Assembly (NCBI GenBank): GCA_964035545.1
Contig: OZ037765.1
Location: 32,239,504-32,303,503, forward strand
Direction of reading: 5' to 3'
From: Bugula neritina
Taxonomy: Eukaryota > Animalia > Bryozoa
Length of the DNA: 64,000 nt
A program made the translations under genes and the position numbers. The notes beneath the pieces were generated by a model. The model searched no databases. It was not told the origin of the DNA and saw only the letters and a program-made list of their open reading frames with translations. Positions 9,201-59,326 of the stretch are shown piece by piece (the first letter of the stretch is position 1; each line of letters opens with the position of its first letter).

Positions 9201-9332
9201 GATCGCATCATCACGAAAGTGTTCCGTAAGTGTAAGTGCTGTTCGAAATGCTCCTCCAATGACAGCATAGAAAGTTCTTCAGAAGATTCAACAGATCAAC
9301 ATGAGATGTACAGAGTCAAGCCAGATGTATAG
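3291..9332 (+). CDS. SLC34A: Type II sodium-dependent phosphate cotransporter (SLC34/NaPi-II family), 10 coding exons, ~595 aa
   Basis: GT-AG exons 3291-3323, 5167-5238, 5340-5424, 5825-5956, 6281-6424, 7295-7486, 7644-7762, 7850-7955, 8176-8358, 8611-9332 join in frame (1788 nt). Family hallmarks are present: [19 protein letters not shown], two QSSS repeats ([20 protein letters not shown]), [46 protein letters not shown], and a Cys-rich C-terminal tail. The first three exons are less certain. Confidence 0.95.
5505..5738. repeat. 29-bp minisatellite (~8 copies) in an SLC34 intron
   Basis: Unit approximately CAGTGTACTGTAACATCCCTACAAGACA(C). Confidence 0.9.
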
Positions 9333-13528: not shown

Positions 13529-14992
13529 CTAAGTAGAAGAGACTTTCTGTGGTAAAGCTATGGAGTATATGTCCAGTGAAGACAGGCTGGATGAGTGATG
13601 CTGAAAAGCAGAAGGCACATTCTGTGTCAAAGGTTGTGGTCTAGCATTGCTGAGTTCACTCATAGAATGACTCATAGAATGAGTCATACTGCTGGTCTGG
13701 GAGATTGAAGGTGATTTTGAGTCAATGCTGCTTAACTTTGGAGTATAAATTTCCAAGGAGTAACTTGATGTACTCAAATTTGAATTCATTTCTTCTGCCG
13801 TAAGGGAAGCATCTAAAATACATCAGAAAACTTTGGTAAACATTATTGACGGTTTTTAGCAGTTGAAAAAATAAATTCTATTTAGTGGTACAAACATAAA
13901 GTTAATTAGCATTGATATGCTTATAAATATTTTCAAATTGAGTCTTTAAAGTTTATTACTCAACTTTTAAAACCTACAATATACTTTTTGAAAAAAGTAA
14001 GTGCCAACTTCATTTTGTGCTGGCTTAAGCTCATTTCTCATAAAGATTGTTATAAATTTAATACTGCTGCTAATTTTCCCTTGTTATCACATGCTATAGA
14101 GTTAACAATTATAACATTGTTATAACCAGGCTATTCCGGCTATAATTAGTTTGAAGAATAAAACTATGAATCTCTATATAGCCCTCCATGACTTAGTAGC
14201 TGACAGAACAAGTAGACTTTTGTCTACTTGTATATGGAAGATCAGTAGGCTGACATATTTCATAATAATCTTCATCTTTAGTGTGATAATAAATGGTCAT
14301 CTCTCTTGATAATAAAATAATAACAGCCTAATAAATATAAGAACGGGCTCATTTAAAAACCAAAAGTCTTTTGAACATATAAACATGGTGATGACAAAGA
14401 GGCATTAATGATATTTCTCGATTAATACCACAGGCTTGTTATATATATAGAGTGCAAACTACCCATTCCATAGATTCTTGCTACAATCATCGAAAACTAC
14501 AATATTCAAGTACATTTTCTCGTAGATTGACACATTTGCTTTATTTCCATGTGCATCAAAGCCACATTGAAGTTACTCAGTTTAAATGTATGAAAATTCA
14601 GTATAGTTGGACTCTCTAATGTCTACATTACCATGCTTCCTGCTAGCATATTTAGATTACATCATCATTATCTGTGTATTATACTCACTGCTAACATATC
14701 TGAATTACATCATCAGTATATGTGTATTATACTCACTGCTAACATATCTAGATTACATCATCAGTATATGTGTATTATACTCACTGCTAACATGTACTTC
14801 AACCAGATGTTCTCTGATATCATCTCTTGATCCATGAGAGTTTCCTTGCAGTTTTCTTCGAATCAAAAGAATTAATAACATAACTACAACTATGAATGCT
14901 ATTGCAGATGGAACCCCAAACAAGACCGATATAACCACTCTTGCAGCTTGAGGATCAACATTAGAACTGTCGATATAGCCAACAAGCACCAT
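13529..14992 (-). CDS. Orphan single-pass (type III-like) membrane protein, cluster gene A, ~163 aa
   Basis: Exon 14785-14992 (ATG just after a ttgtag acceptor; TM VVISVLFGVPSAIAFIVVVMLLILLI then RRK; donor A|GTGAGT) joins in phase 1 to exon 13529-13812 (ttttag|; Ser-rich tail with SLEIYTPK, RPQPLTQNV, SSLSSLDIYSI). The tail is clearly paralogous to that of gene B. Confidence 0.75.
14636..14792. repeat. 48-bp tandem repeat (~3 copies) spanning the gene A splice donor
   Basis: ATACTCACTGCTAACAT recurs at 48-bp spacing (donor dinucleotides at 14687-88, 14735-36, 14783-84). Confidence 0.9.
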
Positions 14993-15683
14993 TTTCTACA
15001 AAATATACAAAACATGCAGCTAAAACTATTTTAAGCAGTTTAGTACTTATATAAGGCAAATAATGCTAATTAATTTTAGTAACTATAAATAAAAGGAATT
15101 GTTAAATATTAGTACATTTCATGAATGAAAAGTATGATATTTTATTTTCTCAATCAAAAATTTCAACTGGTTACAAATGATGCCGATTTGTATAATTCAA
15201 TTACATTCTTATTTATTTATTATATGCATAGTAAAAAGAATTTGTTTTATATAATTCTATAATAAAAACTGTGAAACATTTCGCACCTATAATAGTACAA
15301 TACTAAAAGCAAAGAGACATTTAAACTCTGTCCACACTGGGTTACATTTGAACTATGTTTGCATTTAACCTTCTAAATGCTTTTTGGAATGCTTTTAGTC
15401 TTTTAATTGTATACTACACTATTATAATATTCAGGTAGTATTTACAAAATATCTGCTAGGAAATAAAACATGTGTTAAGGAAGTATACAGAAAAGTACAT
15501 ATTTAACACTGAAATTTGGCTAGATCATATCACTGAATAAACTTTGTAAACACTCGCACACACATTGCAGCTGTATTCACAGCAAAAAAGTAGCAGTCTT
15601 TTTTCAAGGATAAAATTTTTTTGAAGAATATTTGTCATATTGAATAATTATTAGTAGAAAATATATTTGTTCATTTATAGTAA

Positions 15684-15740
15684 TTTACCTGCTCAGACAA
15701 TTTACCTGCTCAGACAATTTACCTACTCAGACAATTTACA
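15684..15740. repeat. 17-bp tandem repeat (TTTACCTGCTCAGACAA)x3
   Basis: Directly visible. Confidence 0.85.
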
Positions 15741-16925: not shown

Positions 16926-17898
16926 TCAACAGGAGCTGGAGGAGAAAACTCCTGGTATGGAGTGGATGTCAAGAGATGACAGACTGGAAAGGCTGTACTG
17001 GATAGAATGTACATTCAGTGTCATGGGTTGAGGGTCAGCGTCAGTGAAGTCACTGCGGCAGCTGGAAAGACTGGCGTTACAGTTGTAGGACATCAACGAG
17101 CTACCAGATTTGGGAGTATAAATCTCAAGGGATAGACCAGAGGAATCCAAATTTGAACTTAATTCTTCATGCGCATTTACAAATTCACCTGAAAATATTT
17201 AAAGGAAATTTTTTTAGAAACATGAATAATTATCATGGAACAATTTTTTGGTTATAGTAATTTAACTGGTCGATCAACACTGAAAATTTGTTATTTGTAG
17301 CCTATATACAATTGGTTAAACTATAATTTATATATTATTATCTCAAAATTACTGAACCAATAGCTATAAAATCACTTAGTTGTTATCTGGCAAATTTTTG
17401 ATTCCTTAAAATTTTATAAATTTATCTAGTCTATATATATTTGTAACAAATTAGAGGACGAAAATAAACAAAAGTTTCTTATAAACTAGCATTAACTGTG
17501 ATAAAATAGGTTTTTCACAAACTCTGTTTAGATAAAAATATTGTGTGCTAAATATTAAAAGATGGCTCAAACCTGCAAATAGCAGTTATATTTAATACAA
17601 TTTTAATAGATTCTTAAAGAATGTAAAACTCTTATACACATGAGATGATTATCATAGATGCTGGTACTATTGCACTTTGTCTATATCTGTATATATACTC
17701 ACGGGCTTCAAAAGGAACACTTTTTGACAATCTCATTCCTGCCTTTTGACTGGTTCTTAATTCATGGATGGCAAGGAAGACCAAGCATCCTGTTAGCAAG
17801 GAAAGAGACACTCCAATAAACCACCAAAGTTCAGTTTCAGACGGGAAGGAATTTCTATAGTCGCTACTTTCAAGCAGATCTAATGTCGGCACATACAT
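16926..17898 (-). CDS. Orphan single-pass (type III-like) membrane protein, cluster gene B, ~152 aa
   Basis: Exon 17703-17898 (MYVPT..., TM LWWFIGVSLSLLTGCLVFLAI, donor C|GTGAGT) joins in phase 1 to exon 16926-17188 (ttttcag|; LSLEIYTPK, DADPQPMTLNVHSI, SLSSLSSLDIHSI). Confidence 0.75.
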
Positions 17899-18635
17899 CT
17901 TTCTACAGAATTAGAAATAAAGTTTTAAACTTTTTTTTATAGGGAATTTAAAGCTTATACTCTTTCTGTTGAGCATAAGGTGATATGCACTGAGAAAAGT
18001 TTTTTTATAAAATATTATATACAAGCAAAAATGGGAAAAAATATATCGTATTGCAATTCTGCTACATTTACATATAGTAAATCATAATTAGATATTTTAA
18101 CTTTATTTCCAAAATGTACATAAAATGTTTTGTTGAAGATAAACCTTAAAAGATCTTGCTGCTTTATGATAAACACACTGCTTTAAAGCATTAAACTGTT
18201 TTGATAATAAGTAACTGACCATATAAACTTTTCTCTCACTGCACATGCCAGTTACCTCAAAGCTGTAGCAATCTGATCAACATGCAATAACTTCCCCAGT
18301 CTACTAGTTAATCATATACATTCACTCAATATATAGAAGCATATTATTTTCCCTTTGTGTGTGATTATATAAGCATCCGCATTCATAACTAATCCAAAGA
18401 CTACAACACAATAGCAGTTATTGATTTATTGAGTATGGAGCAAAGATGGGGGAAGCAAATTTTTCCAGTTTCCCTTATACAAAGGCTAAAAGGGGAAACG
18501 GAAAAATCTTTATGCATTGCTGTGCTTTTGAAAAGACAACTCTAATTTCCAAGTGCTGAAACTTTCAAAAGAAAGAATTTCACTAACAATGCTTACCATA
18601 GAAAGAATACACAAATTGCAATTTATTGTTCTGTG

Positions 18636-19595
18636 GGGGAAACCTGGGTGATATGGACCACTTAAGCCCACAGCCCATACTGACTATGGTTGATTGAAAA
18701 TTAGTATTTCAACATGTGGGTGCTATCTCTACTGACATACAAACAGAATTTGAAGCTCCTATATACAGATGCTTAACTGAGCTATAATTGAAAATTGGTG
18801 GACCATATCACCCGCAGATTTTTTGATATTTTGATGATATGGGCCACCACAGACTCACTCACATAAAGTTAGCTTGTTTGTGTTGAAAATGCACTTTGCT
18901 ATATTAAAAAGTAATATAAAGCAACAGATCTGCAATAAGTGTGTAACAGCTTCTTTTAGTGCCTCTTCACTCCAAGCATTTAGAATATTGTTGGAACAAG
19001 ATCCTGGCATCTAAAATACATTGCATGAGTATGAATAATTCAAGTACACATTCTACTGCAACTGGCTATAATGCTGTCTAATCAATATTTAGGGATTTAA
19101 GGTTTCAGCATTGTTTGAAATACTATAGTGTTACATTTCCCCAAACAAGTAAATGAAAAGAAAAATTCAATTGGCTGAGTGATAGGGTCCACGGTCGATA
19201 TTACCCCCCAAGTGGCGGTCCATATCACCCAAAAATCATGGCACCAAAAATTTTGAATTCCTACAGACTGAGAGTGGACAAGTATTTTATATACTATTTG
19301 GATATTTATACATACCTTCTGCACAATATCTGTAGATACAGGCTCCTTACTTAAGGTAATTTTTTTCAATGAAAATAGATCCACAAAAGTTGTGAAAAAT
19401 TATAAGAAAATGAGCAAAAAGAGAAAATGTGTCCTTATTTTCTTAGACAAAAAGACAAGTTTGAAACATGTAGACAGGAAGTTAGATATTCCTATCTCCA
19501 TACAATAAGACACTTCAACTTTCTGGTAACCTTGGATACTGCAAAACATGCATGGTCCATATCACCCGGGTGGTTCATATCACCCAGGTTTCCCC
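18636..19595. mobile_element. Non-autonomous DNA transposon (~960 bp) with ~25-bp TIRs and a TA-type target (Tc1/mariner-like)
   Basis: TIRs GGGGAAACCTGGGTGATATGGACCA ... TGGTTCATATCACCCAGGTTTCCCC are flanked by TG and TA. Internal copies of the GGTCCATATCACCC motif occur at ~18800, 19215 and 19555. The element is absent from the duplicate copy. Confidence 0.85.
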
Positions 19596-19911
19596 TATGT
19601 TTCATATATAACCCTAGCATTAGCACATCTATAAGAATAGGTTTTACTATGATGTAGTAATTTTGCTGCTGTTATTAAATGCTATCCAAACATTTGCAAG
19701 TATTTTAGACACTATATGATACAAAAATTATCAAGCTGTTAATTTAGTGAATTTTGCAGAGAGATTTTAGCTTGTATGATAGTGCAAGCATAGAAAGCAG
19801 TTTCAAAAACAAACTGGGGTATGTTAAAGTGCTTAAAAATAGTGTAGGAAAAGATGTGTAGCAACAAAACTTGATTTGTTTGTTGATAATTTATAGAAAT
19901 AATTTATGGAA

Positions 19912-19914
<3 letters not shown>

Positions 19915-19980
<66 letters not shown>

Positions 19981-19996
19981 TATATACTGTATATAT
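19915..19996. repeat. (TA)n microsatellite
   Basis: Directly visible. Confidence 0.95.
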
Positions 19997-22315
19997 ATCT
20001 CAATCTGTGGACAGCAGCTGTTTCGGGATTTGTCCCCTCATCAGCACAGAACAGAGTACCATGGCCCACACCTTCGCAATAGTAGAAACTTATAGTTTTA
20101 CTAAAGCTACATTTACATAGTTACAGATCATATGATTAGACTTATAACATAGTAAATCATAATTAGATATTTTAACAATTTATTTTAAAAATGCATATAA
20201 GAAGATTTTTTTTAAATAAACCTGAAAATAATTTGCTAATGGTGATAAACACGCTACAATAACTTTAAAGTAATTAACTATTCTAATGATAATGATAACT
20301 ACAAAGATTTATTAAAATGTAAACACAAATAACTGACCATATAAACTTTTCACTCACTGCACATGCCAGTTATAACCTTAAAGCTGCAGCAAGCTGATCA
20401 ACATGCAATAACTTCCCCAGTCTACACGTTAGTTATCAATATAGAGGCATATTATTTTTCCTTTGTGTGCGATTATATAAGCATCCGCATTCATAGCTAA
20501 TCCATAGACTACAACACAATAGCAGTTATTGATTTATTGAGTATGGAGCAAAGATGGGGGAAGCAAATTTTTCCAGTTTCCCTTATACAAAGGCTAAAGG
20601 GGAAACGGAAAAATCTTTATGCATTGCTGTGCTTTTGAAAAGACAACTCTAATTTCCAAGTGCTGAAACTTTCAAAAGAAAGAATTTCACTAACAATGCT
20701 TACCATAGAAAGAATACACAAATTGCAAATAATCGTTCTGTAGGCCTATGTTCCATATATAACTCTAGCATTAGCACCTCTATAAGAGTAGATTTTACTA
20801 TAATATAAAAATTTTGATGCTTTCCAAACATTTTAGACACTATATGATACAAAAATTAATTTAGTGCATTTTGCAGAGATATTTTAGCTTGTGTGATAGT
20901 GCAAGCATTATAGAGAACAGTTTCCAAAACAACCATGCAGGGTATTTTAAAGTACTTAAAAATCATGTAGGAAAATAGATGTGTAGCAACTTAAAACCTA
21001 ATTTGTTCGTTGATAATTTATAGAGAAGTATATTATATTTGACTTTCTGTAGAATTTGAATTTGGGATAAATTAAATAGTGAAAAGAAAACTTTTGAAAC
21101 TTTAAAAATATCCTATGATAGAAAGCTATAAAATGGCTGTACATGACATATTACTGAGAGAAAATATTACATATAATTACTTATATTTAGTAAATATAAG
21201 ACCAGAGGTTTTTTTCCTATACTTTGAGCACATATACAAACAACTGCACAACAGCCGCTTTAAATGAATAGCTAACAAATATTTTAGGTATAGAATCTTA
21301 CGTATAAAATTTTTGCTTTCAAGTGTAATACAAAACAGTATCGGCATTATTTGGTGCATTCGTGACTCATTTTAAAAGGAAAAAAAGCAAACAACTTCTC
21401 TGACTCATAATCAACACTTCAACAGTATCTTCTCTGTTGTGAACTATGGCTAAAGTTTATATAATATGCTTTCATTTTCATGGCATTTGACCGAAATCTA
21501 GTATAACAGAGGCATGGGAGATTACTCCTGCTAAAACTATTGATCTAATTATAAAGAGCAGACGGTACCTTCAAACATGCCAAGTTATATGGCTAGTTCA
21601 AGGTGAAGGTCATACATCGTATTTATCAATAAAATAGTTCATTCTACTCTTTTACGACTAAATAACTTTATACTGTAAAACAGGCATAAGTGCTAGAAAG
21701 TTCTAGCTTGGCTAACGAAATAATTGGGAATTTGTATCAATGAATCATTGTCTCCACTTATCGAAGGTGTGTGGCTCAAAGTACTATATATTTATATTAT
21801 ACAGTGTTTATTTATAATGTGAGAATTTCATTTATTTTTATTAATTGTTGCACATTTGTTACATGTTTGTACAAAACTTATGATAAGAACTATAAACACA
21901 ATCTTTGCTGAAATATAACTGATATGAGATATCTAATTATTAGCAGAAAAGAAATTAAATTGGAATTTAGTTTTCTATTTTTGCACATCATATTGTAACT
22001 CAAAAAGTTGTAATTTGTAAGCTTGATTAATTGTGCTATATCTAAACGTTTTTGTTTTATTTACAAATTTAAAAGCATTTAATAATTTTCATAAAAACAA
22101 AACAAACTATATATGAAACATTCAATTAAATTGTTTTAATGAACGGCAAGCAGAGCTGAAAAGCTAAAAGAGCAAAGCCAAAAAGAAAAAGATCAAGTAA
22201 AATAACAAAAGCAATCAAATTGTATCTTTATAATTATATAAATAACGACAGAGATAAGTAGTGTAATGATGTCTTTCAAGGTGAAGGTCAAAATTGCATT
22301 GTTGTTACTTTTTTT

Positions 22316-24050
22316 TTAATCCATTACCTCAAGCTTCAATGACTTTGGGTCTGCATCACTAAACATACTGTGCTGCTTAGAATGAAGGGAGCGTGTTGAA
22401 CGTCCGCTAGATGAGTTGATGGACCGAATAGACAGTGCCAAACTGCTAGAAGAATCTGAATCAAAAGCTGTTTCCTTTACCATAGACTCATCTAAAATTA
22501 ACAATTATTTTAAAATAATATGAGCAATTGTATTTTAAAACTATGCCACTCATGCATAATCTGTGATGAGAGACAGTTTATATACATAAATATAATTCAG
22601 CAAAACAAAAATTGAATTCTTTTCGATATTTTTGGAAACAAAATCATGTGTTCTTACTTGTGTCGATTTTAATGTCAGTTAATGTTGTTGGAAGTCTACT
22701 TGGATCAAAATTATCTGCAACATACAAGTTTATAACTGGTATTATGGTATATTTGTTTTAGAAATAATTAACCTAAATCAAGGTATAAGAAATGCTACAT
22801 ATAATGATGGTGTTGTACATGCACTCAATATATATCTAAAACCTATATAGCTAGTTATATTTCATACTGTAAAGTGGTTCTTGCACTCTTACTATACTTA
22901 CTATTTATTGTGGGTTCTGTTTGAGGGTTGATGTTGAATTTGAAGAAGTATATATAAAAAGAAACTCCTCCAAAAATTAAAACAGCCGATAGCACAACTA
23001 GGCTTATAGTCCATAGTGCAGGTTGGGATATTGTTGGTGCAACGGTAGATTCACCAGCGTCTTTTGGCTTTAACTTCTTACCAGCATTATTAAGAAATCT
23101 GTTTATCTTAAATTTGAGGCTGCAGTGTAGTGGTACATTATAAGTTGGAAAAGAGGCTGTGTAATTAGTGGTATAACCTAGAAAATGGTCTACAATCACA
23201 ATCAAAACACTGTGTCAATTGTCTGCACAGGTTTTTACTTTATTATAGTATTACAGGTACATATTAATTTTGTTTAAAAATATTAAAGCGGTGCTTATGA
23301 AAAAAGTTATAACACATTTGATATACTATAGTTAATGAGAAAAATTTTACACCTATATAAACTTCTAAATCTCTTCTGTAATATTCATATAGACTGGAAC
23401 TCTATCTTGTTAAAATCAATATGTTGCTACTAAGTAATTTGTAGTCTGCAAATGTTAAATTTTATGCTTATATATTACTCCAGTACACACACACAAACAC
23501 ACAAATTCTATCTGCTATTCACAAAATAATATATCAAATGTTTTACACTTCCAAGTATAATACCAACAGTAAAGTTAATTCATTGATGAGCCCAGCAGTA
23601 AACTAAGCGCAGGGGATCTGAAAGCCTCATATCGACCAAGTAATTTTGTGGATGCAGTCCAAGTGAGATTTTTACATAGAAAACTAGTGTTTGCTCCAGC
23701 GTACTAAGTATAACTAGTCCTAGTCACATGCAGTAAATTAAGCTTTCATAGAAAGGAAATTGTTAGAACATAGCATAAACTAACAAAATTGGATCCTTTT
23801 AATACTGAAAAGATTGTATATGACCAAATAGTAGCTAGTGTATCCAGATCAATACTATACTGAATATAGCATAGCTTATTACGTTTCTTACCATGTTGAT
23901 TTCTGTAGCAAATATCCTTATATGGAAACTCCAATTCTGCACCATCTTCAGCCTCTTTTATAGAGGAATATAACTGGTATTGCAAACTCAATCGACATAG
24001 TATAACTAACAATAAAAGTGTTTTGATAGTTTGTTGAACTTTCTGTGACA
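22316..24050 (-). CDS. Orphan type I membrane protein, cluster gene C, ~207 aa (start uncertain)
   Basis: Phase 1-1 exon 23892-24050 (signal-like TIKTLLLLVILCRLSL; donor G|GTAAGA), phase 1-1 exon 22902-23189 (N-glycosylation sequon NYT; TM LWTISLVVLSAVLIFGGVSFYIYFF; donor A|GTAAGT), and terminal exon 22316-22491 (SSSSLALSIRSI, SDADPKSLKLEVMD*). The last two exons are better supported than the first. Confidence 0.65.
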
Positions 24051-24077
24051 CTAAAACACAATTTAAAACATATACAT

Positions 24078-24099
24078 AACACACACACACACACACACA

Positions 24100-24138
<39 letters not shown>

Positions 24139-24154
24139 GCGCGCACACACACAC
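24078..24154. repeat. (CA)n/(CGCA)n microsatellite
   Basis: Directly visible. Confidence 0.95.
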
Positions 24155-24850
24155 AAATAGAATACTAAGATATGTATGAGTCTATCACTTTCACTGTAGG
24201 TTACTATAACAATACTTTAAGTTGATGGGTAGTTTAGTAAAGTAGGTCATATAGTAATGATTGAGACTATGTAAGAAAGTAGGTGATCAATTCAGCTGAT
24301 TTAAGGTACTGCTATATATCCTGCTTTCTGATGAAACTATAAAGCTACTCATACAACTATAAGTTACTAAAATATATCTACTACTTAAACTAGTACACTT
24401 TTATCCAGATAAGTTGCATTTTTTCACATTTCTACATCATTATATGTGATACATACTAAACTCCATTGCGCTTTACTATGTTACTTCAGCTCTCCTAGTA
24501 ATTCCTCACTCAAAGCAGCAAAAGCCATTTGTTCGTACTATGTACACGTTATGCATGACTAAAAACTTTTGATAAATGTTTTTGTTAAAATGCAACTTGA
24601 GGACAATAAATATACTTACTTATATATGCATTTCCAAAGCGAGTTTATCTAATCTGCCAAATACGGAAGTAAAGTCATCGTACGAAAAAAGGATATTCAA
24701 AATGGCGATGGCACTATTATAGTTCAGAGTTGTATTCTCTTGCTACTTTTAAGTTGTCTTTGCCATAGTTGCATCTGATATGTTTTGCTGTAAACGATGT
24801 TCACAGACATCCCATTATATAATATTTTGTCAGTTAGTTTGTTTCTATAA

Positions 24851-25203
24851 GCCTAGGGCCACACTGTGCGTATTTTCGCATGCGAAAATTGAAACCACAA
24901 GTGCGCAAGCAAGCAAAGGTGTTCACTGTAGCGTCAGTGATGCGTGATAAATAAAGCTTTCATTTTTAAATCGCACTCGCTTTCAATAAAACGCAATTTG
25001 CTGGAATGTAGCACTAAAATAAAGAAATTGGGCCCGCTGAATAACTACCAGCCAATTAGGTGACGACGACAAAGACGATTCGCACTTGCGTTGAGAATGC
25101 TGAGCGACAAGTGCGAATGTTTTCTCAACGCGTACAGTGGACACCTTTGCTACTTGCGATTTCAATTTTCGCATGCGAAAATACGCACCGTGTGGCCCTA
25201 GGC
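24851..25203. mobile_element. MITE, PIF/Harbinger (Tourist-like), 353 bp
   Basis: ~50-bp TIRs GCCTAGGGCCACACTGTGCGTATTTTCGCATGCGAAAATTGAAA / TTTCAATTTTCGCATGCGAAAATACGCACCGTGTGGCCCTAGGC, flanked by TAA on both sides (3-bp TSD). Confidence 0.9.
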
Positions 25204-26944: not shown

Positions 26945-27806
26945 CTAATTACTGTAATCTATTGAATGAATATAGAGGGAAAGTGAAGAGCTACTAGATC
27001 TCGTGGCCTTCATATCACTGCAGGAGTCAAGTGAATGAATATTAAGAGACAGTCCAAAAGAATTAAAACTGAGGGAACCTCTTCTTTGAGAATTAGCCAA
27101 TGAGCATTGAGTATTGCTTCTCGAACTTCGGTTTAGCAAGTCGTCAGTACTTCGGCTCTTTTCACTAACCAGCATCAGGTCATAAAATTCCTCTGAAACC
27201 AAAATGTAATTTTTAAAGTTGAGAAAAATTTGAAGATTTCAGATTTAAATTTTTTTTTAATAGTATTTTAGCTCTAAAATGTTCAACTATATAATAATTG
27301 CATTAAAATTTTACTTGACCTGTTACATTCCTGCTAGCTCTTATAGTTAACCTACTGTATGTATATGAATTATATTTATAAGAATGCAAGTATAATGTAA
27401 ATTATAATTAGAAAAACCTGAAAGACTTTAAACTTGTAAACCTAACACAGTATTATAACATATGTGTATAGTTTTCTTAGTTTATGTCTCATTTGTATAA
27501 CTATATAAAGTCATTAGTCATAGTTTAATTTGGAGTGGAAGCAGTTCATATATAAAAGTAAGTTTTTAAGCATTTGAAACTTGACAAACTGTATTGATTT
27601 AAAACACTCACTTTTCAAACTTCTCGCATTCTCTGTTGTCACTTGATTTTCGTTGCCATGGCAATTTCTTGCACTCCAAAAATATTTGAAAAGAAAGACC
27701 AAAGAAGAGACTCCATGCACATATATTATTAGTAACAAAATGATTAAAATTTTATTGAACTTTACGTCTTCTTTCAACTCATCTAGAGTTTTTTAATGTT
27801 TAACAT
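26945..27806 (-). CDS. Orphan single-pass membrane protein, cluster gene D (5' end frameshifted or incomplete)
   Basis: TM exon ending at 27612 (ILIILLLIIYVHGVSSLVFLF; donor A|GTGAGT) joins in phase 1 to exon 26945-27192 (tttcag|; EFYDLM, GLSLNIHSL, SSSSLSLYIHSI). The ATG at 27806 is out of frame by 1 nt across an A6 run. Confidence 0.6.
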
Positions 27807-28818
27807 GTGGTGGTGATCTATGTTTGTGCCAATTGAATCAGTAACAAAGTGACAACTAAATTGAAATTTTATCAAATCCAATGTGAGAAGTGTTGACACG
27901 ATTTTTTTTATTCATATAACAATCATAATTTTACCAATAAATTTAAATTTAGAATTATATACTAATGACTTAGTTTCCAACTTATAATATATTTGCCCTA
28001 TATATTATGTGAGCCCATGTTTGAATGCATGTCAACCCTACTCTGTGATGATTAGAATTTATTTGTGATATTGTGATAGAAGCATCTTGAATTCATGGCA
28101 CATCATCATTCTAATAGCATTATTATGCTTTTATTGATCCATTCTGCATTCAGAATCTCATTGTAAATATATTTAACATATTATTTTACAAATTGTTTAC
28201 TGGGAAAACTATAAGTTTTTCACTTAAAAGTGATTGAATTATTTTTCCTTATGCCTACAGAAGTGTGTGATTAAAAAATATATTATATAGTAATTCTGAA
28301 ATTGTATAAACTCTTTTTTTTGAGCTATATTGTAGCAATTTCAACTTTTATTTAAAATATAAATACAAATAAGAAGCAGCCATAAAGTGCCAGGTCAAGA
28401 GTTCAGACTCTGATTAAACTATCTTAAGTTTTATCCTGAATAGCTATTTTTAATAATTGTTTACATATTTTTATGTAGAGCATATAATAATTAAGGTAAT
28501 ATATTATCAATCAACTGTACAATTTTCTCCCCTGTACATTTTATAATGAAGGCAGCTGATAAATGTGAATACATCATAGATAACACTATTAAAATAATCT
28601 AACACCTAAACTACAATCATGAAACAATGGCACCTGGAATAGATTAAAAGCTCAATAAAGCATTATATAAGTATAGGGATATTAAAATAATAATATGTCC
28701 CATCAAGAAATTATTTAGCCTAATTTTATGCTGATAACTTGCTTCACCAATATAAATTTCATATAAACATGATTAGGAGTGATTTAGAAATTGTCTTCTC
28801 TACATTTGCAGGTGGAAG

Positions 28819-31800
28819 TTAATATGAGCCACTGTACTCAGGTGCAGGATGACTCGGCAATAAAGAATGTCTGTTTAAACTAGTGATGCTTTCTTCTGGT
28901 TGATTTACGCTAGCATAGTCAGAAGGTCGTAATGAGTCTGGAGATGTTGGTAAGTATAGCAGGGGAGCAGGTAAACTAGAGGTAGTTGAGGAATGGAGAT
29001 CATCTCCCCTCTCTTCACTGACCAATGAAGGAGTGCTGCTAGTAATTGTCAGGTCTTCATTTTCTTGAGGATCTTCAAAGTCTTCTGAGATTAGTGTGAG
29101 TTGATCTTAAAACAAAATTTCTATCAGTTAGGAAAAAAATTTGGGAGAGTTAATTTTTTATCTTGGAATTGAAAAAAATCATTAATTAAGAATAATATTT
29201 TACATAGCAGGGAAGACGTTAATGTAGAAAAATGACTATATAATCACTATGATCGAGATTGAATTAATACTCACCTTCATTTCCCAGGTTAAGTAATAGG
29301 GAGTCAGTAAATGCTCTGACGTTCTGGTTAGGTGATGGAAAGTATTGCTGGATCACAGATAGTTGTGCTTACAAAAACAAAAACTTGCAGATAACAGCAA
29401 AATACATCATGGTTGTCCGTTGTAGGCAAAGCAAAAAATTCTATGACAGATTTTTTTGTGGTGAAGCTGAATTTCCTGTATATCCTAACAGAGGCAATGA
29501 TTTCAAGGGAGAAAATTTAGCAAATAAACAGTCTAAACAAACCTGTTAGTGCTTCCCATCTCCTTTGATATCCAGCATAAGAGCGACAGAGTATGACAAT
29601 AACCACAATAAGCAGAAGTATGATAACTCCACACAGTACTACCGGTATTACAGAAATGATAGGATTTTTACTGTTTAGCGGAAATGTTGCCTCTTCTTGT
29701 ATATGTAGTTTGTCTTTTTCAAGCATACAGCTGGAAGCTCCTGCATAAGGATATAAGCTCATGAAATTTCTTTCATAATTAAGGTTCTGAATTAAATTCA
29801 TTAAATGCATTGTCGGCGCAGTATCAAGGTTATGAACTGCAAAGAGAGATATAGTAAATTAACCGAACAGATTTAATAAGCTCACTGTTACCGCCCTTTG
29901 GGTAACCGTATTTTCTTTGTGACTATTAATCCCTTGCAGCGCTCCAATTTCGGTTCAGTCGGACACCCGAAATAGTTTGGGGGATTCCGGATTTGGGTGC
30001 CCGATGGGCGATCGGACACCCGAATCCGGGCCGAAGATCACAAGCCTATAATACATTCTGATTGACGGACCACACTCTGATTCTGCTCTCTTTCATAATT
30101 ACTTTGAGATAATGTTCTAGCATTGGTTCTACTGACTCTACACCTCAGTAATTTTAGTGCACAATTTGTTTTAAAGTTCTTGTGTACGAAGGAATTTATT
30201 TAATAAATAAAGCAAATACTAAGCTACCATCCTTTAGCTATTTGAATAATTTTAGAATACCTTCATATGCCCACAAAGGTGAGTTTCTTACAATACAGCA
30301 TCTACCCATTTTGCAACTGTATCCTTTAAGCTGATGAGATCCATGTTTCCTTTCAATTGAATATTTGATTTTAATTGAGTGTAATACCATGTCTACAAAG
30401 TGAACAGGAGAAATCTTGTCTGTAATACATCAACTGCGGGACTAATTAGTTTTTAACAATATGAAGTAAAAAAATAAATTGGAGATATTACAAAGTAAAC
30501 ATGAACAAACTTCTTCTAAGATACCAAACAATGAAACATTTATAGCAAATTTTTGTTCGCAATCTATAATCATTGTATCAGCACGGATGCTTATGTATTG
30601 TGATTCAATCAATGGAGAGTGGATATGGATGGAGGACACATAAGCAGGCCACAACTCTACTTTTTGTCTATTGCCAACAGTATATTTCTCACAAAACTAA
30701 AATTCAAACTCCTACTTGAACTTGAACTCAAGCTCGAACTTGAACTTAGACTTGAACTTGAACTGTAACAATTATTTTGACAATTAAGTATAAATTGCCT
30801 GCATCTTTATAGCAGGAGGGAAATTGAGCTACACCCACTCATTGAGCAAAAACTGTCAGTAAATAGCTATCGCGAAAGCTTTCACAAAAAGCTTCTGATC
30901 GTTACACAATGATTTTCTGAAAGCTACCAAAAAACTCCTGCAACAATCATTAAATTATATTACCAAATTTATTTATTTAAATTTTAAAGTATATATATAT
31001 AGGTATACTGACTTATTTTAGAAAATTAATTAGTATTATAGGTAAATAAAAATAAAAATAAATAACAGTTATGAACCTCACAAAAGTTTATAGTCACCAT
31101 CCCCGTGAGAAACCCCTGATGAAAATAAAGATTTTTTTTGTTAAATCGGGGTAAGGACTTATTCAGATGAGGCACAGGAGCAATTATGACTATAGATGCT
31201 CTTTCTAACACCACCAATGGCTTTTACTGGGGTTTGAACCCATGACTTCGTGTTTATTAAGCCTGTGCTTTAATCTCTAGACTATGGCTGCTCCCAAAAT
31301 AATATAATTATGAGCCTAACTCAAATAAAATCTTCAATGATATTAAACTTTACTGAATTCGCATTGTAACTTTAGTAATAAATAGCTAATAAAGTGTAGG
31401 CTTATTCCTATATCATTATAACAAACTAAACTTGGGCAATCTTTATTAATTAAAGATATGGTTTTTTAAAATGCTGTCGAAGTGGCTGAAAATTTTATCA
31501 TTGCAATTTAGGGTTGAAAATTTGTCAGCAAAAATACTGAAACCAATATACTAGCATATATATGCATTTGCAGTAATAAAACACTTGCATGCTGCTCATA
31601 TTATATATAATTAGCTAAGGTGACTGCCATATGTTATTAACTTTAAATTGCTGGAGGTGAAAATTAAAAAAAAGGTAACATAGAAAACAAGCTTATATAC
31701 AGATCAGTCAAAGAAACCTGAAATTTGAACAAAAATTAGTTTGGAGCAAATAAATTTGTTTTAAAACATAACAAAATAAACTAGCTGAAGATGGCTATTT

Positions 31801-32296
31801 TTTATAGCTTGCGGTATAAATCTTAATGTTTTAGAATGCTACTCAATTCAATTGAGGACATAATTTATGCAACAGACCAAACTTGAATAGGTTTGGCTAG
31901 TAGTAATGAGTGTGTTTCTAGCATTAAAAGCCCATAATTTCAAGAAGCCCAAATATTTGCTTTCAGAGTTCAAAGTTTTCTTAGCATTATGCTAGAATTT
32001 GAAATTATGTCCACCGCTAAAATTTACTATAATAGAACTATATTTTTACATATTTTACATATACCTATATGATAATATACATGTATATAATATGCACCTT
32101 CAAAGAATGACTTTTCTGTTGACTTAACATCCTCAAAGTTGTCATACTGTGAATTTAAAGGCGTACAGAATTCATCTGCAGAATTAGCCTGGAAGTTACA
32201 TCTTAAAAGTTCATAGAAATACTCCATTTCAGTACATTCATGGCCACAGGCTACTGATAGAAGTAGCGGCAGGACAAGAATTAGTCTGGGTCCCAT
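28819..32296 (-). CDS. Orphan type I membrane receptor, cluster gene E, 5 exons, ~334 aa
   Basis: Exons 32098-32296 (signal MGPRLILVLPLLLSVACG; CTEMEY..C..C), 30261-30392 (..CKMGRCC..), 29543-29836 (stalk plus TM IISVIPVVLCGVIILLLIVVIVILC), 29275-29367 and 28819-29105. All introns are GT-AG and phase 1; total 1005 nt open. Confidence 0.75.
29930..30048. mobile_element. GC-rich DNA transposon end fragment in an intron of gene E
   Basis: Direct and inverted TCGGACACCCGAA sub-repeats ending in GATCACAAGCCTA; composition is unlike the flanks. No partner TIR found. Confidence 0.45.
31155..31292 (-). mobile_element. tRNA-headed SINE-like element, family 2
   Basis: The reverse complement contains GGGTTCAAACCCCAGTAAAAGCCATTGGTGGTGTTAGAAAGAGCATCTATAGTCATAATTGCTCCTGTGCC, matching the 12.1-kb copy. 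Confidence 0.6.
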
Positions 32297-33821
32297 GCTA
32301 TTCTAAAAGGAAGTGATGCCTTAGCATATGTACTAGGCTAAAACACCCACTAATAACCAACCATATAGGCTACACTATACAATATAATTTGCAGAACTTT
32401 ATAATGCATTATCACTATTTTGCTTATATATATAGTGAGCATTAAATATATAAGTTTTTTCTTATTACCCATAAGTACAACTAAACTAATATAAATATAT
32501 TGTTATAACAATTGATATTTTTCTCAATTAGAATATAAACGCTGCATGTATCCTACCCAACTTGCACAAGTATTTCATATACATTACAATACATTACAAA
32601 TACTTGTACTTGGGTACTCACCTTATACTGTAAGTGACTGCTAGTGTCAGTATTTACAGACTAACAACAGCTTTTCCCAAAAAAAACCAAAAACTCAAAC
32701 TAGTCATGGTACTAACAACTGACTACATATAAATGGAAGCTTCCATATCAGCTATAGCTCAAAGTATAACTAAAGAAACTTGCTGATAAATATACATTAA
32801 TGTGACGTGATTAAAGAAATTTACGAGAGATAACGTGCAGCTTGAAGTTAAATAATATTATTATCTAACTTCAAAGTTTTTCCTTTTATCTCGTGTAATT
32901 GTTTTTCCTTATTTTCTTTCAAGCTTTTTTCCATTATATACAAGATGAATTATAATCTTTAGGTTGGGTAATATACCAAGGATGCTAGTAAAACTTAAGT
33001 TTCATTGGTATTACTCAACCAAAAAATTACAACTCACCTTATATAAATAATAGAGAGGAAACAGTTTAACAGACTTGGAAATATACAAAAGCAATTTATT
33101 TGGATAAAGTCTAATAGCATTATTATGCTTTTATTAACCCATTCTGCATTCAGAATCTCATTGTAAACATATTTAACATATTATTTTGCAAATTGTTTGC
33201 TGGGAAAACTATAAGTTTTTCACTTAAAAGTGATTGAATTATTTTTCCTTATGCCTACAGAAGTATGTAATTAAAAAAGATATTATATAGTAATTCTGAA
33301 ATTTTAAACTCTTTCTCTAAAGCTATATTGTAGCAATTTCAACTTTTATTCAAAATATAAATACAAATGAGCAGCAGCCATGCATAACGTGCCAGGTCAA
33401 GAGTTCAAACTCTGATTACACTATAATAAGTATTATCCTGAATAGTTATTTTTAATAATTGATTACGTATTTTTATGTAGAGCATATAATAATTAAAATA
33501 ATACATTATCAATCAACTGTACAATTTTCTCCCCAGTACCTCTTATAATGAAGGCAGCTGATAAATGTGATACATCATAGATAACATGATTAAAATGATC
33601 AACACCTAAACTACAATCATGAAACAATGGCACCTGGAATAGATTAAAAGCTCAATAAAGTATTAAATATGTACAGGGGTAATAAAAATAGCAATATGTG
33701 CAAGCAAGAATTCACCTAGAGTGTGATTGCATGCTGATAGCTTACTTCACCAATATAACTTTCATATAAACATGATTATGGGTTTTTTAGAAATTGTCTT
33801 CTCTACATTTGCAAGTGGAGA

Positions 33822-36800
33822 TTAATACGAGCCACTGTACTCAGGTGCAGGGTGACTCAGAGATAAAGAATGTCTGTTTAAACTAGTGATGCCTTCTTCT
33901 GGTTGATTTACCATAACATAGTCAGAAGGTCCTAATGAGTCTGGAGATGTTGGTAAGTATAGCAGGGGAGCAGGTAAACTAGAGGTAGTTGAGGAATGGA
34001 GATCATCTCCCCTCTCTTTACTGACCAATGAAGGAGTGCTGCTAGTTATTGTCAGGTCTTCATTTTCTTGAAGATCTTCAAAGTCTTCTGAGATTAGTGT
34101 GAGTTGATCTTACAACAAAATTTCTATCAGTTAAAAAAAATTTTGGGAGAATTAATTTTCTATCTTGGAATTGAAAAAAAAATTCCGCTAAGAAAAATAT
34201 TTTGCAAAGCAGAGAATTGAAGTTAATGTAGAAAAATGACTATAATTACCATGATCGAGATTGAATTAATACTCACCTTCATTTCTCTGGTTAAGTAATA
34301 GGGAGTCAGTAAATGCTTTGACGTTCTGGTTAGGTGATGGAAAGTATTGCTGGATCGCAGATAGTTGTGCTTAAAAAAACAAAAACTTGCAGATAACAGC
34401 AAAATACATCATGGTTGTCCGTTGTAGGCAAAGCAAAAAATTCTATGACAGATTTTCTTTGTGGTGAAACTGAATTTTCTGTATAACATAACAGAGGCAA
34501 TGATTTCAAGAGAGAAAATATAGCAAATAAACAGTCTAAACAAACCTGTTATTGCTTCCCATTTCCTTTGGTGTCCAGCATAAGAGCGACAGAGCATGAC
34601 AATACTCACAATAAGCAGAAGTATGATAACTCCACACAGTACCACCGGTATTACAGAAATGATGGGCTTTTCACTTTTTGGCAGCAATATTGCCTCTTCT
34701 TGTAAATGTAGCTTTTTTTCTTCAAGTGTATAGCTGGAAGCTTCATAAGGATATAAGCTTTTGGATTCTTCACTTTTTAGTGGGTCTTCACTTTTTAATG
34801 AGTCTTCACTTTTTAGTGGCAATACTGTCACTTCTAGTGAATCTGGTATTTCGAAGTCCTCTTCAAGTGTATAGCTGGAAACTTCATAAGGATATAAACT
34901 CGTGCGATCTTCCTCATAAAGCTCTGCACTGAATTCATCAAATGGGACAACCCCAGTATCAAGATCATAAACTACAAAGAAAAATATAATAAATTAATAA
35001 AACAAACTAAATAAGCTCTAGCATTGCTATTGGCACAATACTGAGTCTCGCCATTACCTCCTGTTGGGTGATACCCCCATGTTATCTACTTTCTAATTAA
35101 ACATATTGATGGAATTTAATATAACAAAACAAAAAGTTTTAAGCAAAATAAGAATGCTCCAACCCCCCTATATATATACACACTTTGCCCCACTGTAGGC
35201 CGTAATGTAAATTGTCAGCCATTTTTAATGTGTCTGGGCTGAAGTTTTCAAAGTGCGCTATTGGGTACGATCTATGACACCTCATTGGACATTTATATCC
35301 AATGGATTCATTAAGAGCCCTTTTTTTAATCAAGCAGTGCTTGATTCAAACATACTGTAACCGTACAGGAAGCTTGGACATTTGTAAAAATGGCTGGCAT
35401 TTTATGCTACGGTCTACGGTGCGCAAAGTGTGTCTATATATATAGGGGGATAGACTTTAACAGCTGTTGTTATCAGTGACTATAATATACAGTCAGAACT
35501 ATCTATTATTTTGTTTTAAAATACTAATTAGATTAGCTAGGTATCATTTTGAAAGACGTATGCAGTTGGACTCATTGTTATGGCTAACAGAACTAGCTAA
35601 AAGACTCGTCACGAAATTGTTTAAAAAAGCTGTATGGCAAAATGAATTTCAAATAGAATAGAGTTGAGCTAGAGATTTCTAAACTCAGGTCTTATAGTGC
35701 ATGAGATATTAAAACTCTATAATTAGCTAAAAAGTGCAGTACCACAAAACAAACGAAACAGTGAAATCAGCAAACAAAATATTGATTAAACAGAGACCAA
35801 GTAGCCTACAGATCATTCAGTAGAACGAAAGTTATTGAATTATGTGAAAAAGGGCAGATAATCCTTAACAAGATTATATAACCAAAGTAAATCATACTAA
35901 TAGGATATTGTAGTAACTCCAAACATTGCAAAGCAGGGTCAAGATTTCGGCACTATAATAACAAATGGCTGTGGTAACCAAAAATGATACATGAAATGCC
36001 CCAAGCTCCCCAAATCTGCTACATATATTTAATTGCATATTTTCAAAATTAAATCTTCAAAATTTAGGTATATTTGCTTATTCTACAGCTATAACTTACT
36101 TAATTTCCAACTATTAATTAGTTTTTGTAAATATTGATTTCAGATTCCATAATTGATGACAAGCCCAGCAGAGCTTATAGCACTTTTCCAAAGTTGTAAA
36201 CCCTGATTTTAAAGCAGAAACACACTGCTATGTCTACGGAATGCAAAAGAGTAAAAAACTCACTCCTTACTTTACTCCCTATTATATGCTCACAATAAAG
36301 TATGTATAATCTGCTCCCGTTATATATACTTATCATTCATACTTTTAGGTCTATTATTTAGTCCATACCCTTATTTTTCTTTCTGCTATGCTCCATAGCT
36401 ACCTATAGCTATAACTACTCATAGTTAAAACTATACTGACTTGTGAGTTAAAACATGTATACAGCTATGAGCTCTTCATATATATTGATATCAGCCTAAC
36501 TGTAGCTAGTTCAAACATTTGTTCATGCAGGGCTACCCCCTCTTATTTTAATGTAATATGTTAAGAAACGTAGTTATGTGTGTTGTATGTTAACTATCAT
36601 GCAGCGCTTAACTTTTTGTGTTTCAACAACTTATTGAAGAAAAGGACATGTTTATAATAGTGCGTTACGAAATACTATTCCACTATCTCACATGTTTGAA
36701 TTTGGATAATTTAACATAAATACTGATAACTAACATAGTTACTATAATAGTAATAGTTATATTCTACCTCTTACTGGTGAAGCATTATTTTTTAGTCATT

Positions 36801-37218
36801 CAGCATATTGCGATGAAAGCTTTGAAAGGTAGCCTAATTTTCCTACCTCTTTAGTGTACGGGATGCTCTGATTGATCTGGTGTTTTTCCATGTATTTGTT
36901 TGTCTACAGTTAAACTGATTTTGAGTTGAGCAGATGAACTGGCTCAGAGTGGTTTCCATGTATCAAACTGAGTGAACTGCTGAACTGAGAATTATACATG
37001 GAGACTCGGCACTCACCATGCAGAGGCTTGCCATCATCATTTACTATGTGTGAGAAGTCGTCCCATTTTTTGCAAACAAATGAGTCATCTTTATTGCTAT
37101 ACTCCACCTGCTCATGAGAATGTTCCTCAATGGTACATTGATCTCTACAGGCAGCTGACATAAGTAGCAGTTGCAAAACTAAATAGAGAAATGCTTGTAT
37201 GCTTTTTCTTGTCGCCAT
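33822..37218 (-). CDS. Orphan type I membrane receptor, cluster gene F (paralog of E), at least 4 exons, ~335 aa
   Basis: Exons 37017-37218 (signal AFLYLVLQLLLMSAAC; CTIEEH..C; donor G|GTGAGT), 34546-34971 (acidic repetitive stalk plus TM), 34277-34369 and 33822-34108. All introns are phase 1; total 1008 nt open. The last three exons closely match gene E. Confidence 0.75.
35164..35449. mobile_element. MITE with ~65-bp imperfect TIRs in an intron of gene F
   Basis: CCCCCTATATATATACACACTTTGCCCCACTGTAGGCCGTA..CAGCCATTTTTA vs TAAAAATGGCTGG..TACGGTCTACGGTGCGCAAAGTGTGTCTATATATATAGGGGG. Confidence 0.8.
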
Positions 37219-39117: not shown

Positions 39118-41740
39118 TTAATTGCTGTTGTTTAGCATGTAGTTACTGTTGTTTAGCATGTAGTTGCTGTTGTTTAGCATGTAGTTACTGTTGTTTAGCA
39201 TGTAGTCCCTGCCAACTGGCAGACATGGTAAAGAGTGGATGTTCAGTGAAAGAGAATTAGACTTGTGAAGACAGTCACAACTCAGGTCGTGTCTGAGGGG
39301 CTGAGGAGAACTGCCAGCAGACCAGCTGCTGCCGGAGTTGGTGGATGCAGTTGGATGGTTGAGACTGCCAAGACTGGATCTGAGAGAGTAGATGAAGATG
39401 GACAGGCCAGATGAAGATCCATCAGAGGAACGCCAGCTGGTTCTGTAAGAAGTTTGAGGATGGTGTTCTGGTACGCCAGTCATGAAAATCCCTGAAGTGG
39501 TTTCCTCAAACTTCATCAGTTTTTTTAACTGATCAGTTTTTCTCACTGCAACACATTTCAATGAGTTTAGGGGGATAATCAAATGAGATTTATAGCATTT
39601 TAGACCTTAAAAACATTGTGCAGTATTTCAGTAACTTTTAACATGGAGATCAAGTCATGTTGGATAAAACTTTTGTTTGCATTCCCAACTAAACTTTTGT
39701 AACTAAAACCAGAACATTAGAACTGCAATTAAAATTTAAAGCAGTCAATAGTTTCAAAAAATCACATCCAATTTTAAAGCTTTTCGGAACACATAACTTT
39801 CCACCTTTTATTTGGTTAGTTTTGTGTTATTCACTACACATACTTCCCATGGTCTATAGCAGATGCTCGCAGGGATAGATTTGTGGTTTCATCTGATTGA
39901 CATTGCTCCCACCATGAGTGAAAAATTCATTCCATAATGCTAGTTTGGGAGTTGCAATAATGTCAACTAGAGTTCGTTGCTATACCCATTAACTATAACT
40001 AGTATAGATGTGAATCATGCTTCCAATTGTTATGGTCATAGTCAGCATCTATATATAATATTGTCATAGTTCTTGCTAACAGTTAGTCTGTATAGATATA
40101 GATTTGTCACCACAATTTATATTTTTCCTCCTACTCGTGTTACCAGAAAGATACTGATATTTATTAAGTTTACAACTTATATGGTATAAACTATAACATA
40201 TACTATGAGATCATGCATATACACTGTGTTATAATAATTTAAGCTAATAAATTCTAACTTCCTAATTATTTTGATTTATGTAATAAAACCTATTTGTAAA
40301 AGTACTAGCTATAACTTTTCTGTTGCATCTGGGTTTATTTGTGTTATTGTTATGTACTTGTTTTCATCTTGTTATAGGTTATTATAAGGTCAACATCAAT
40401 TCAGCATTACAGAAGCTACAGACAGACTCTTGCACTTTGCTATATACCTGTTTTGTGTTTTCAAGCTGAAAATTAGTTAATTGTTGCTTTACCTGCATGC
40501 ACTGGTATTTGGGAAAAAATAAAATTTCCTTAAACTTCAATACATTCAATATATATAATTGTTGACAATCGATAAAAGCTGTCTGTTATCTAAACCAAAC
40601 TTGCCTTGTCTTAAGGTTATATGCAGGAACTAAACCTTTCGAGTGGCCCATCTAGACTAAATAGTATGACTCACCCCCAGACAAGCAATGCTGTCTTTAA
40701 AGTTGTTTCAATGGCCATAATATTATTATAAGCAAAACTATAGAGATTACCATGAATAATGATGGTGTATTTGTCATCATAAATAGTGCAGTTATTGTTG
40801 AAAAAAATCACAGATTGCCGTGACTACATTTTATTGCAAGGTAAGTTAAACAGTTGACTGCATAACATATTGCAATAACCTTACTATACTCTTATAACAG
40901 ACAGCATTTAATAGTTGGGCAATTCCAAGTTCTATTGAAGAAAATGCGTTTAAAATTAGCAATTCACAGAAAGGTTATTTGCGATACTGCATGTTTAAAG
41001 TAAGACAACTTCTTTGCAACAGCTTTATGTTAACCTGAGTGTAAATTGCGGCATTTTTCGAGCAATTTTTATTGAATCTTGGATTAAATGATTATGGGGC
41101 CAGTGCCATTAATTGTCAACAAAATTTTTTCAATGCCCAAAAAGCCTATAACATTCAATTAGCTACATGAGCAGTTATATCCATGAAACACCAAAACTTT
41201 AATAAAATATTGCAACACTATCCACAAAGTATAACTTTTCAAGTGAATGGGTGAAAGCTATATTTAGCTTGTGTTACAGCTGCATGAAAATTGTAATGTT
41301 ATACAACACTGGATTATACCATGACTCATAAACAATGACTCAGGCTGATATAATTTCTACAGGGAAGTGTATGTTATACTAAGAGTTAAGAAAGCTCACA
41401 ATTTATAAATAGCTGAGAAATTTGATAGCTGATACTAATTTTTTGACAAAAATGAAACATTCTTAAACAAACAAATTTTAGTTCTGAAATTACCTCATGC
41501 AGTGACGTGTTGTTATAGTTATAAACGCATTGTAATGAGTAGGTAACACAGCCATGAAAACATAACATATCTATTAGATTAGAGAACATTCTGAAAAGAG
41601 TACAAGTGACCTTGCAACATATACTCACCAGAGCAAAACCAAGGTTTGATGCTTCTCTTCTTGAGAATTGTCAGCGTAGCAAACATCAGCATGATGGTGC
41701 CACAGGGAGCCAACAGGATGAAGGCCCACTCCCAAACCAT
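39118..41740 (-). CDS. Orphan single-pass (type III-like) membrane protein, cluster gene G, ~179 aa
   Basis: Exon 41629-41740 is below the ORF-track cutoff and encodes MVWEWAFILLAPCGTIMLMFATLTILKKRSIKPWFCS with donor G|GTGAGT. It joins in phase 1 to exon 39118-39545 (ttgcag|; SSGLSIFIYSL, SSPQPLRHDLS, SLSLNIHSL, (YMLNNSN)x4). Confidence 0.72.

Positions 41741-43680: not shown

Positions 43681-59326
<15,646 letters not shown>

Follow-up and report, generated by a model that had tools for sequence, protein, structure and literature searches.

In a 64,000-nucleotide stretch of Bugula neritina DNA (contig OZ037765.1; hereafter the window), seven small predicted tandem genes, A to G, were found on the minus strand, flanked by SLC34 and L3MBTL, and their serine-rich cytoplasmic tails (19–30% Ser) repeat the motif S-[LI]-x-I-[HYR]-[ST] far above chance expectation. 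In STING, MAVS, TRIF and TASL, the serine of a pLxIS motif is phosphorylated by TBK1 or IKK and then bound by the IRF association domain (IAD) of an IRF. A preliminary description of the stretch had proposed that the repeated motif is a selected docking or phosphorylation site on membrane adaptors, perhaps an invertebrate variant of pLxIS with one extra residue. The reading put forward here, tentatively and with somewhat less than even confidence, is an analogy: the tails would work like STING's C-terminal tail, through kinase docking, phosphorylation and IRF-type recruitment by a motif one residue longer. Judged by their sequences, A–G are not members of the STING, MAVS, TRIF or TASL families; the defining motif and domains were not found in them, and the claim is limited to working like a STING tail. 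The gene models and their tail elements, the latter located by pattern scans, are as follows (TM, transmembrane; all on the minus strand).

13529..14992, minus: gene A, 163 residues, no signal peptide predicted; TM exon 14992-14785, tail exon 13812-13529.
14275-14228, minus: optional small exon of A, Tyr-rich, with a weak donor and the acidic Tyr word EDYYEI.
13742..13759, minus: motif copy 1 of A, SLEIYT, preceded by TAEE.
13616..13639, minus: middle element of A, PQPLTQNV, unchanged in the relatives P0161, P0163 and P0165.
13562..13579, minus: motif copy 2 of A, SLDIYS, within SLSSL.
16926..17898, minus: gene B, 152 residues, no signal peptide predicted; TM exon 17898-17703, tail exon 17188-16926.
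B tail, minus: SLEIYT at 17132, PQPMTLNV at 17033, TLNVHS at 17021, SLDIHS at 16976.
22316..24042, minus: gene C, predicted; exons 24042-23892, 23189-22902 (TM), 22714-22658 and 22491-22316.
C tail, minus: LALSIRSI at 22441 and the C-terminal FSDADPKSLKLEVMD (middle element at 22348); P0162 is a C-like relative.
26945..27782, minus: gene D, predicted; TM exon 27782-27612, tail exon 27192-26945.
D tail, minus: SLNIHS at 27049, SLYIHS at 26980; middle element lacking.
28819..32296, minus: gene E, 290 residues, predicted signal peptide and small Cys-containing ectodomain; exons 32296-32098, 29836-29543 (TM), 29367-29275 and 29105-28819.
E tail, minus: PQENED (PxExxD) at 29070, DLTIT at 29055, SDYASV at 28923, SLNRHS at 28881.
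33822..37218, minus: gene F, 335 residues, predicted signal peptide; exons 37218-37017, 34971-34546 (TM), 34369-34277 and 34108-33822.
F tail, minus: SDYVMV at 33926, SLNRHS at 33884; P0166 is an E/F-like relative.
39118..41740, minus: gene G, 179 residues, no signal peptide predicted; TM exon 41740-41629, tail exon 39545-39118.
39385..39402, minus: motif copy 1 of G, SIFIYS.
39283..39306, minus: middle element of G, PQPLRHDL, matching PxPLR..D of the TBK1-binding motif of STING.
39232..39249, minus: motif copy 2 of G, SLNIHS.

In the six independent tails (F, nearly a copy of E, was left out), 8 matches to the strict pattern stand against 0.025 expected, and none of 20000 residue shuffles reached 8. 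The enrichment over a shuffled Ser-rich background that the preliminary description implied is thus borne out, and the peptides it had quoted were all located in the minus-strand tail exons of A–G. A six-frame scan of the window gave 11 strict matches, 8 of them within these tails. A strict match on the minus strand at 30633, SIHIHS, belongs to an 84-codon frame in a region of high-copy repeats within the E intron and is likely due to chance. Because the pattern had been drawn from these same sequences, a leave-one-gene-out profile test with 2000 shuffles was added. Nine of the ten copies in A–D and G scored P ≤0.0135 (A copy 2, 0.0005; B, 0, 0 and 0.0025; C, 0.0135; D, 0 and 0.001; G, 0 and 0.0015), the exception being A copy 1 at 0.09. 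Among the looser versions that had been proposed for E and F, SLNRHSL alone beats chance in this test (P ~0.024).

The tails had been described as otherwise unalignable, with the motif as the main thing conserved. Neither statement held, as the A and B tails are 53% identical and a second element, P-x-[PS]-[LM]-[RKT]-x-[DEN]-[VL], is also conserved in A, B, C and G, between the motif copies or, in C, after the single copy. This middle element reads PQPLTQNV in A, PQPMTLNV in B, PKSLKLEV in C (identical in P0162), PQPLRHDL in G and perhaps PDSLRPSD in E. When each gene was left out in turn, the homologous site ranked first in A (P 0), B (P 0), C (P 0.004) and G (P 0.003); the site in E ranked second with P 0.87, and the element is absent from D. 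The order of elements is accordingly motif, middle, motif in A, B and G, motif and middle in C, and two motifs in D. The single copy in C, LALSIRSI, has Ala where the other tails have Ser.

The motif copies are not independent because the tails are paralogues, and since paralogues share ancestry, constraint is the better test. Among the 8 strict copies, Ile is encoded by three codons, the first Ser by three and Leu by four, and these scattered synonymous codons imply that the residues, not the DNA, are kept. The variable third codon positions support the proposal of a selected linear motif on membrane adaptors, as does P0162, in which 16 of 17 residues in the motif blocks are kept against 22 of 40 elsewhere (p 0.003); the latter figure is biased, since P0162 was retrieved by a motif-weighted profile and the blocks were defined after it had been seen, and to that extent it detracts from the case. 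The A tail matches both B. neritina paralogues, P0163 (KAF6040185.1) and P0165 (EB796_001512), at 81 of 90 positions, compared with 53 of 69 and 49 of 68 in the N-terminal part, and P0163 and P0165 match each other at 87 of 90 tail positions and 42 of 69 in the N-termini and TM segment. By this comparison of sequences, A-type N-terminal parts change fast and the tails are conserved at the protein level. B. neritina has these two A-type genes side by side on the SLC34A2 contig, and the window has one.

On the other hand, the genes could be decaying or neutrally drifting paralogues that retain the motif by descent only, an explanation we consider quite improbable. Several observations agree with it, and they count equally against a conserved STING-like function. 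Alleles were compared with contigs from one sequencing run, X1, which is possibly the source sample, and one X1 contig carries a two-letter insertion at 17085 in the B tail exon; the resulting frameshift after copy 1 would cost this allele the middle element and copy 2. The A-type relative P0161 has an extra Leu inserted in motif copy 2. A scan for start exons gave no candidate for C and none for D. Between the E and F tails, 8 codon changes are replacements and 3 are silent, identity is equal to that of the introns and there is no sign of constraint, and the identity of the paralogue tails may stem from recent duplication or conversion. Against decay, all seven tail exons are open, all 13 modelled junctions are GT-AG in phase 1, ten of them with GTRAG donors, synonymous codons are spread through the motif, and the tails are better kept than the N-termini relative to B. 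neritina. Among the X1 differences listed (40 of 197 and 40 of 334), nine tail-exon substitutions were checked, 5 replacement and 4 silent, none of them in a motif core; this is a sample rather than a full tally.

The likeness to STING was assessed at the middle element. The STING TBK1-binding motif (TBM) is given as (D/E)xPxPLR(S/T)D in the available text of PMC9343627 and PMC10451998, and vertebrate STING conserves LxIS and PxPLR according to that of PMC7733315. PQPLRHD of G has PxPLR and the final D of this motif and is the sole PxPLRxD in the six frames of the window, with a likeness of P 0.00035 by pattern shuffle and 0.0006 by BLOSUM score against the published consensus. The best TBM-scoring window coincides with the homologous middle site in five of the six independent tails (A, B, C, E and G; not D). 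The IRF/pLxIS idea thus gains circumstantial support from a TBK1-binding-type peptide that, by sequence, occupies the homologous middle site of G.

A number of findings speak against working like a STING tail. Canonical pLxIS occurs in 0 of 7 tails, the nearest form being DLTIT, with Thr, in E and F alone, and with the extra residue of the motif the phospho-Ser would point to the opposite side of a beta-strand. The motifs of E and F are degenerate: of the looser versions, DLTITS in E was at chance (P 0.94) and LTLIS fell outside the top three windows in the leave-one-out test. Likeness to the TBM falls short of significance in A (0.09), B (0.21), C (0.30), E (0.83) or D (0.92). The P values for G refer to a pattern picked after G had been seen, G lacks two of the seven specified TBM positions (D/E and S/T), and its match rests on one sequence, as no relative of G was found. 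The coincidence of sites is weak evidence because prolines are rare in the tails, and the best TBM window lies elsewhere in F, P0162 and P0166. Finally, 26 residues separate strand and TBM in G, compared with two between pLxIS and the TBM in STING (available text of PMC9343627), so that the STING spacing is not reproduced.

Alternatively, the strands may be genuine and under selection but dock some other partner, or one peculiar to the lineage, such as another phospho-reader or kinase, the likeness to STING being coincidental. The evidence of conservation fits this explanation just as well; the lack of canonical pLxIS, the wrong spacing and a significant TBM likeness in only one of six independent tails favour it, as does the lack of relatives outside Bugula or metagenome records in the profile and near-length searches. 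It has to treat as chance, however, that a clean TBM match in G sits at a conserved site between two pLxIS-like words, and that two independent likenesses point to one pathway. We regard it as unlikely.

If the tails do work like that of STING, the proteins would be clustered through their variable N-terminal or TM parts, and the middle element would play the part that PxPLR has in STING, docking a TBK1/IKKe-type kinase. The docked kinase would act in trans on neighbouring tails, phosphorylating their serine clusters as well as the motif Ser, and the phosphorylated L-x-I-x-S strand would recruit a reader, at best guess a Bugula IRF with an IAD whose groove would take a motif with one residue more than vertebrate pLxIS. 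E and F, with a degenerate motif and the words SDYASV and SDYVMV (SxYxxV), which we take to resemble an immunoreceptor tyrosine-based inhibitory motif (ITIM), would be diverged or dampening members. Likewise, the [TA]xEE ahead of copy 1 in A and B (TAEE in A) is presumably a TRAF2-type pattern. The serine context of the motif may also resemble the IRF7 C-terminus, for which the papers listed gave no occurrence.

The available portions of the literature give this scheme some plausibility. In the lophotrochozoan Mytilus, TBK1 and an IAD-bearing IRF are present (PMC3308963). Chicken pLxVS did not induce interferon in mammalian cells, from which it follows that pLxIS-type motifs vary with the host IRF (PMC10451998). 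The STING tail has been described as modular, with LxIS, PxPLR and PxExxD motifs strung together that were gained and tuned (PMC7733315), and with an engineered clustering device only tandem two-copy STING tails signalled (PMC10482946). A STING-tail-like scaffold is plausible because lophotrochozoans have TBK1 and IAD-bearing IRFs, because the motif is tuned to the host and because doubling of the tail helps in the engineered system. In its widest form the proposal is doubtful: bryozoan tandem single-pass receptors would carry a STING-tail code, with a TBK1-docking PxPLR-type element and doubled IRF-docking L-x-I-x-S strands, so that TBK1–IRF docking logic would be pre-vertebrate or re-invented on cell-surface receptors, and joined to recognition parts that evolve fast and are exon-shuffled, like those of a locus for allorecognition or the sensing of symbionts.

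Three further explanations were considered. In beta-catenin-binding repeats, an SLSSL phospho-cluster stands downstream of a D..F/Y anchor, and the preliminary description had offered CK1/GSK3-primed clusters of this type, as in cadherin and APC, as an alternative; they would bind beta-catenin or another armadillo protein. The serine content of the tails is high, and SLSSL does occur once in A and twice in B, directly ahead of copy 2, but 5 of 7 tails lack it, it is the downstream I-[HYR]-S that forms the conserved core, the anchor pattern was found upstream in 0 of 7 tails and a cadherin domain was not found, which makes the explanation improbable. Alternatively, the strands could be degenerate RHIM-like amyloid signalling motifs (RHIM, RIP homotypic interaction motif) that stack into a beta-solenoid. 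The RHIM core tetrad is [IVL]Q[IVLC]G, and L-x-I-[HY] resembles the first RHIM strand; the tetrad is present in 0 of 7 tails, none of 8 tail sequences gave a Pfam family at E 10, and prolines follow several copies. Two or three copies on unstructured linkers do look like RHIMs in tandem, which are found in invertebrates and also on PGRP receptors of insects (available text of PMC4262963), yet an amyloid role seems very improbable. Docking of calcineurin through a PxIxIT-like strand, the other alternative raised earlier, is scarcely credible: P-x-[ILV]-x-[ILV]-[TSH] is found in 0 of 7 tails and no proline stands two places ahead of the strand, even if the hydrophobic residues alternate and LxVP-like words (LPAP and LYLP) occur in E and F.

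For the gene models, exons were joined by eye and then checked by script. Besides the ten GTRAG donors there are three weak ones, and all frames are open; because the exon ends were chosen by the analyst, the consistency of the junctions does not amount to proof. Every model shows one strong predicted TM segment, and A–G are predicted to encode single-pass membrane proteins. In the models of A, B and G the initial ATG comes just after an acceptor, a signal peptide is not predicted and the extracellular parts are very short; E, F and probably C have a predicted signal peptide and a small ectodomain. The start and the TM-to-tail join of A recur in P0163 and P0165, which belong to an ab initio annotation with transcriptome hints (available text of PMC7576161). 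The B. neritina models do not include the small A exon at 14228-14275, and 13823-14330 is skipped in one X1 contig. In G, the tail ends in a 21-base tandem repeat (39125-39206, 3.9 copies) that encodes Asn-rich NNSNYML.

Pfam gave no meaningful family for tails or ectodomains, and no Ig, sushi or cadherin domain; PDB sequence searches gave chance matches alone, none of them STING or IRF. AlphaFold models of E exon 1 (helical) and of the G tail (no secondary structure) had predicted local distance difference test scores of 52 and 53, respectively. The first exons of E and F both carry A-C-x3-C-T-x2-E, with no Pfam or PDB match to the TNF receptor cysteine-rich domain, and a BCMA-like look of the E ectodomain was likewise unsupported.

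The arrangement of D, E and F points to a duplication.

28110..29883, minus: copy of 33110-35018 (exons 2-4 of F with the DNA downstream of them), 90.8% identical over 1660 bases.

This F-derived duplicate has E exon 1 on one side and the D TM exon on the other, and the E and F tail exons are 95.5% identical. The first exons of E and F agree in 12 of 45 residues, and blastn found no match between them; a gap-rich global DNA alignment of the two (74% of 158 columns) was discarded as artefactual. In the models, E exon 1 splices in frame to the D TM exon as well as to that of E. E is likely a chimaera of the old first exon of D and a copy of the TM and tail exons of F, because F exons 2-4 were copied next to D, the first exons of E and F are dissimilar and E exon 1 joins D in frame. 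Accordingly, D may have been orphaned at its 5' end or may represent an alternative splice form.

Relatives were few. Among 1.84 billion representatives the profile search found 2 matches, and the near-length search 4 of 5431 candidates, all from B. neritina or metagenome fragments and of A, C and E/F type. None was found for B, D or G in the profile, longer-protein, near-length and metagenome searches. In the longer-protein search, a weak one, none of the 7981 scored candidates reached E 1; scans of metagenome loci confirmed 0 of 595 pattern matches for the G tail and 0 of 155 for the A/B alignment, and exact database look-up of open reading frames of the window gave 0 of 10. The ESM Atlas gave no usable match for the G tail, which shows neither novelty nor absence.

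The surroundings of the array (GC content of the window 32%) include two flanking genes.

8547-9329, plus: last exon of SLC34, by Pfam-type domain match.
44.6-48.5 kb: L3MBTL-type exons (three MBT, two zf-C2HC).

The SLC34 exon is identical to Bugula neritina SLC34A2 (KAF6040188.1) at 235 of 240 positions and falls in a common 90% cluster. Words resembling interferon-stimulated response elements number 10 in the 35 kb near the genes and 13 across the window, with no pattern. An Rfam search of the window returned a tRNA-like element as its sole match; this element, at 10731-10802, lacks a proper anticodon, resembles 767-873 and is likely a tRNA-derived repeat. A DNA transposon occupies 54921-58413, where 884-base inverted repeats (97%) flank frames with a DDE-type transposase helix-turn-helix (PF13613). 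Between genes B and C (18074-21024), intergenic segments are duplicated at 78-83%, and a short high-copy inverted-repeat element lies at 24850-25204. In X1, long contigs without differences and with depth 61-65 cover 20596-24064 (gene C) and 29610-30671 and 31227-33229 (around E exon 1); contigs over genes A and B are shorter, differ and have depth 89-101. This pattern is a weak hint of haplotype-specific gene content, depth not being copy number.

Compared with the vertebrate STING tail, the A–G tails are alike in being membrane-anchored, likely unstructured strings of short modules, with an L-x-I..S strand in a Ser-rich context, PxPLR..D in G and, in E, PxExxD, a feature of fish STING. They differ in the extra residue before the Ser, in the two or three copies and in the longer distance to PxPLR. 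STING has four TM helices and a cyclic-dinucleotide-binding domain, whereas A–G have a single TM segment, no such Pfam or PDB match and a seven-gene array with fast-changing N-termini. In the available text of 10.1101/2022.12.18.520954, shrimp STING has neither pLxIS nor PLPLRT/SD, and the STING of invertebrates is said to be without a functional tail. Literature searches on invertebrate pLxIS, PxPLR–TBK1 and bryozoan STING/IRF, immunity and allorecognition reported no such genes by title and start of abstract among the matches listed, subscription papers excepted. A STING-tail-like signalling scaffold would be unexpected in an invertebrate, and the A–G tails offer concrete candidate docking peptides with a predicted variant code of one extra residue.

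With MAVS, TRIF and TASL, the tails share a phosphorylatable L-x-I strand in a disordered region (available text of PMC10589346); unlike them, A–G lack CARD, TIR and canonical pLxIS and are predicted to be integral single-pass proteins, three of them without a signal peptide. Transmembrane adaptors of the LIME1, LAT and PAG type are similar in their short N-terminus, one TM segment and disordered tail, and the ESM Atlas listed LIME1 (0.89), vaccinia A36R (0.90) and stannin (0.91) for P0163, which with low shared-feature counts serve as leads only. The elements that A–G have in common are Ser-based, in contrast to these adaptors, and YxxPhi was restricted to the D, E and F tail exons in a pattern scan of the tails. 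Hydractinia Alr and Botryllus fester are invertebrate clusters of allorecognition or paired immune receptors. A–G differ from them in that no Ig or sushi domain was found and in the very short extracellular parts of A, B and G, but resemble them in the tandem single-pass genes, variable extracellular parts, change of copy number and ITIM-like word in E and F. A–G are a candidate immune or self/non-self locus in bryozoans.

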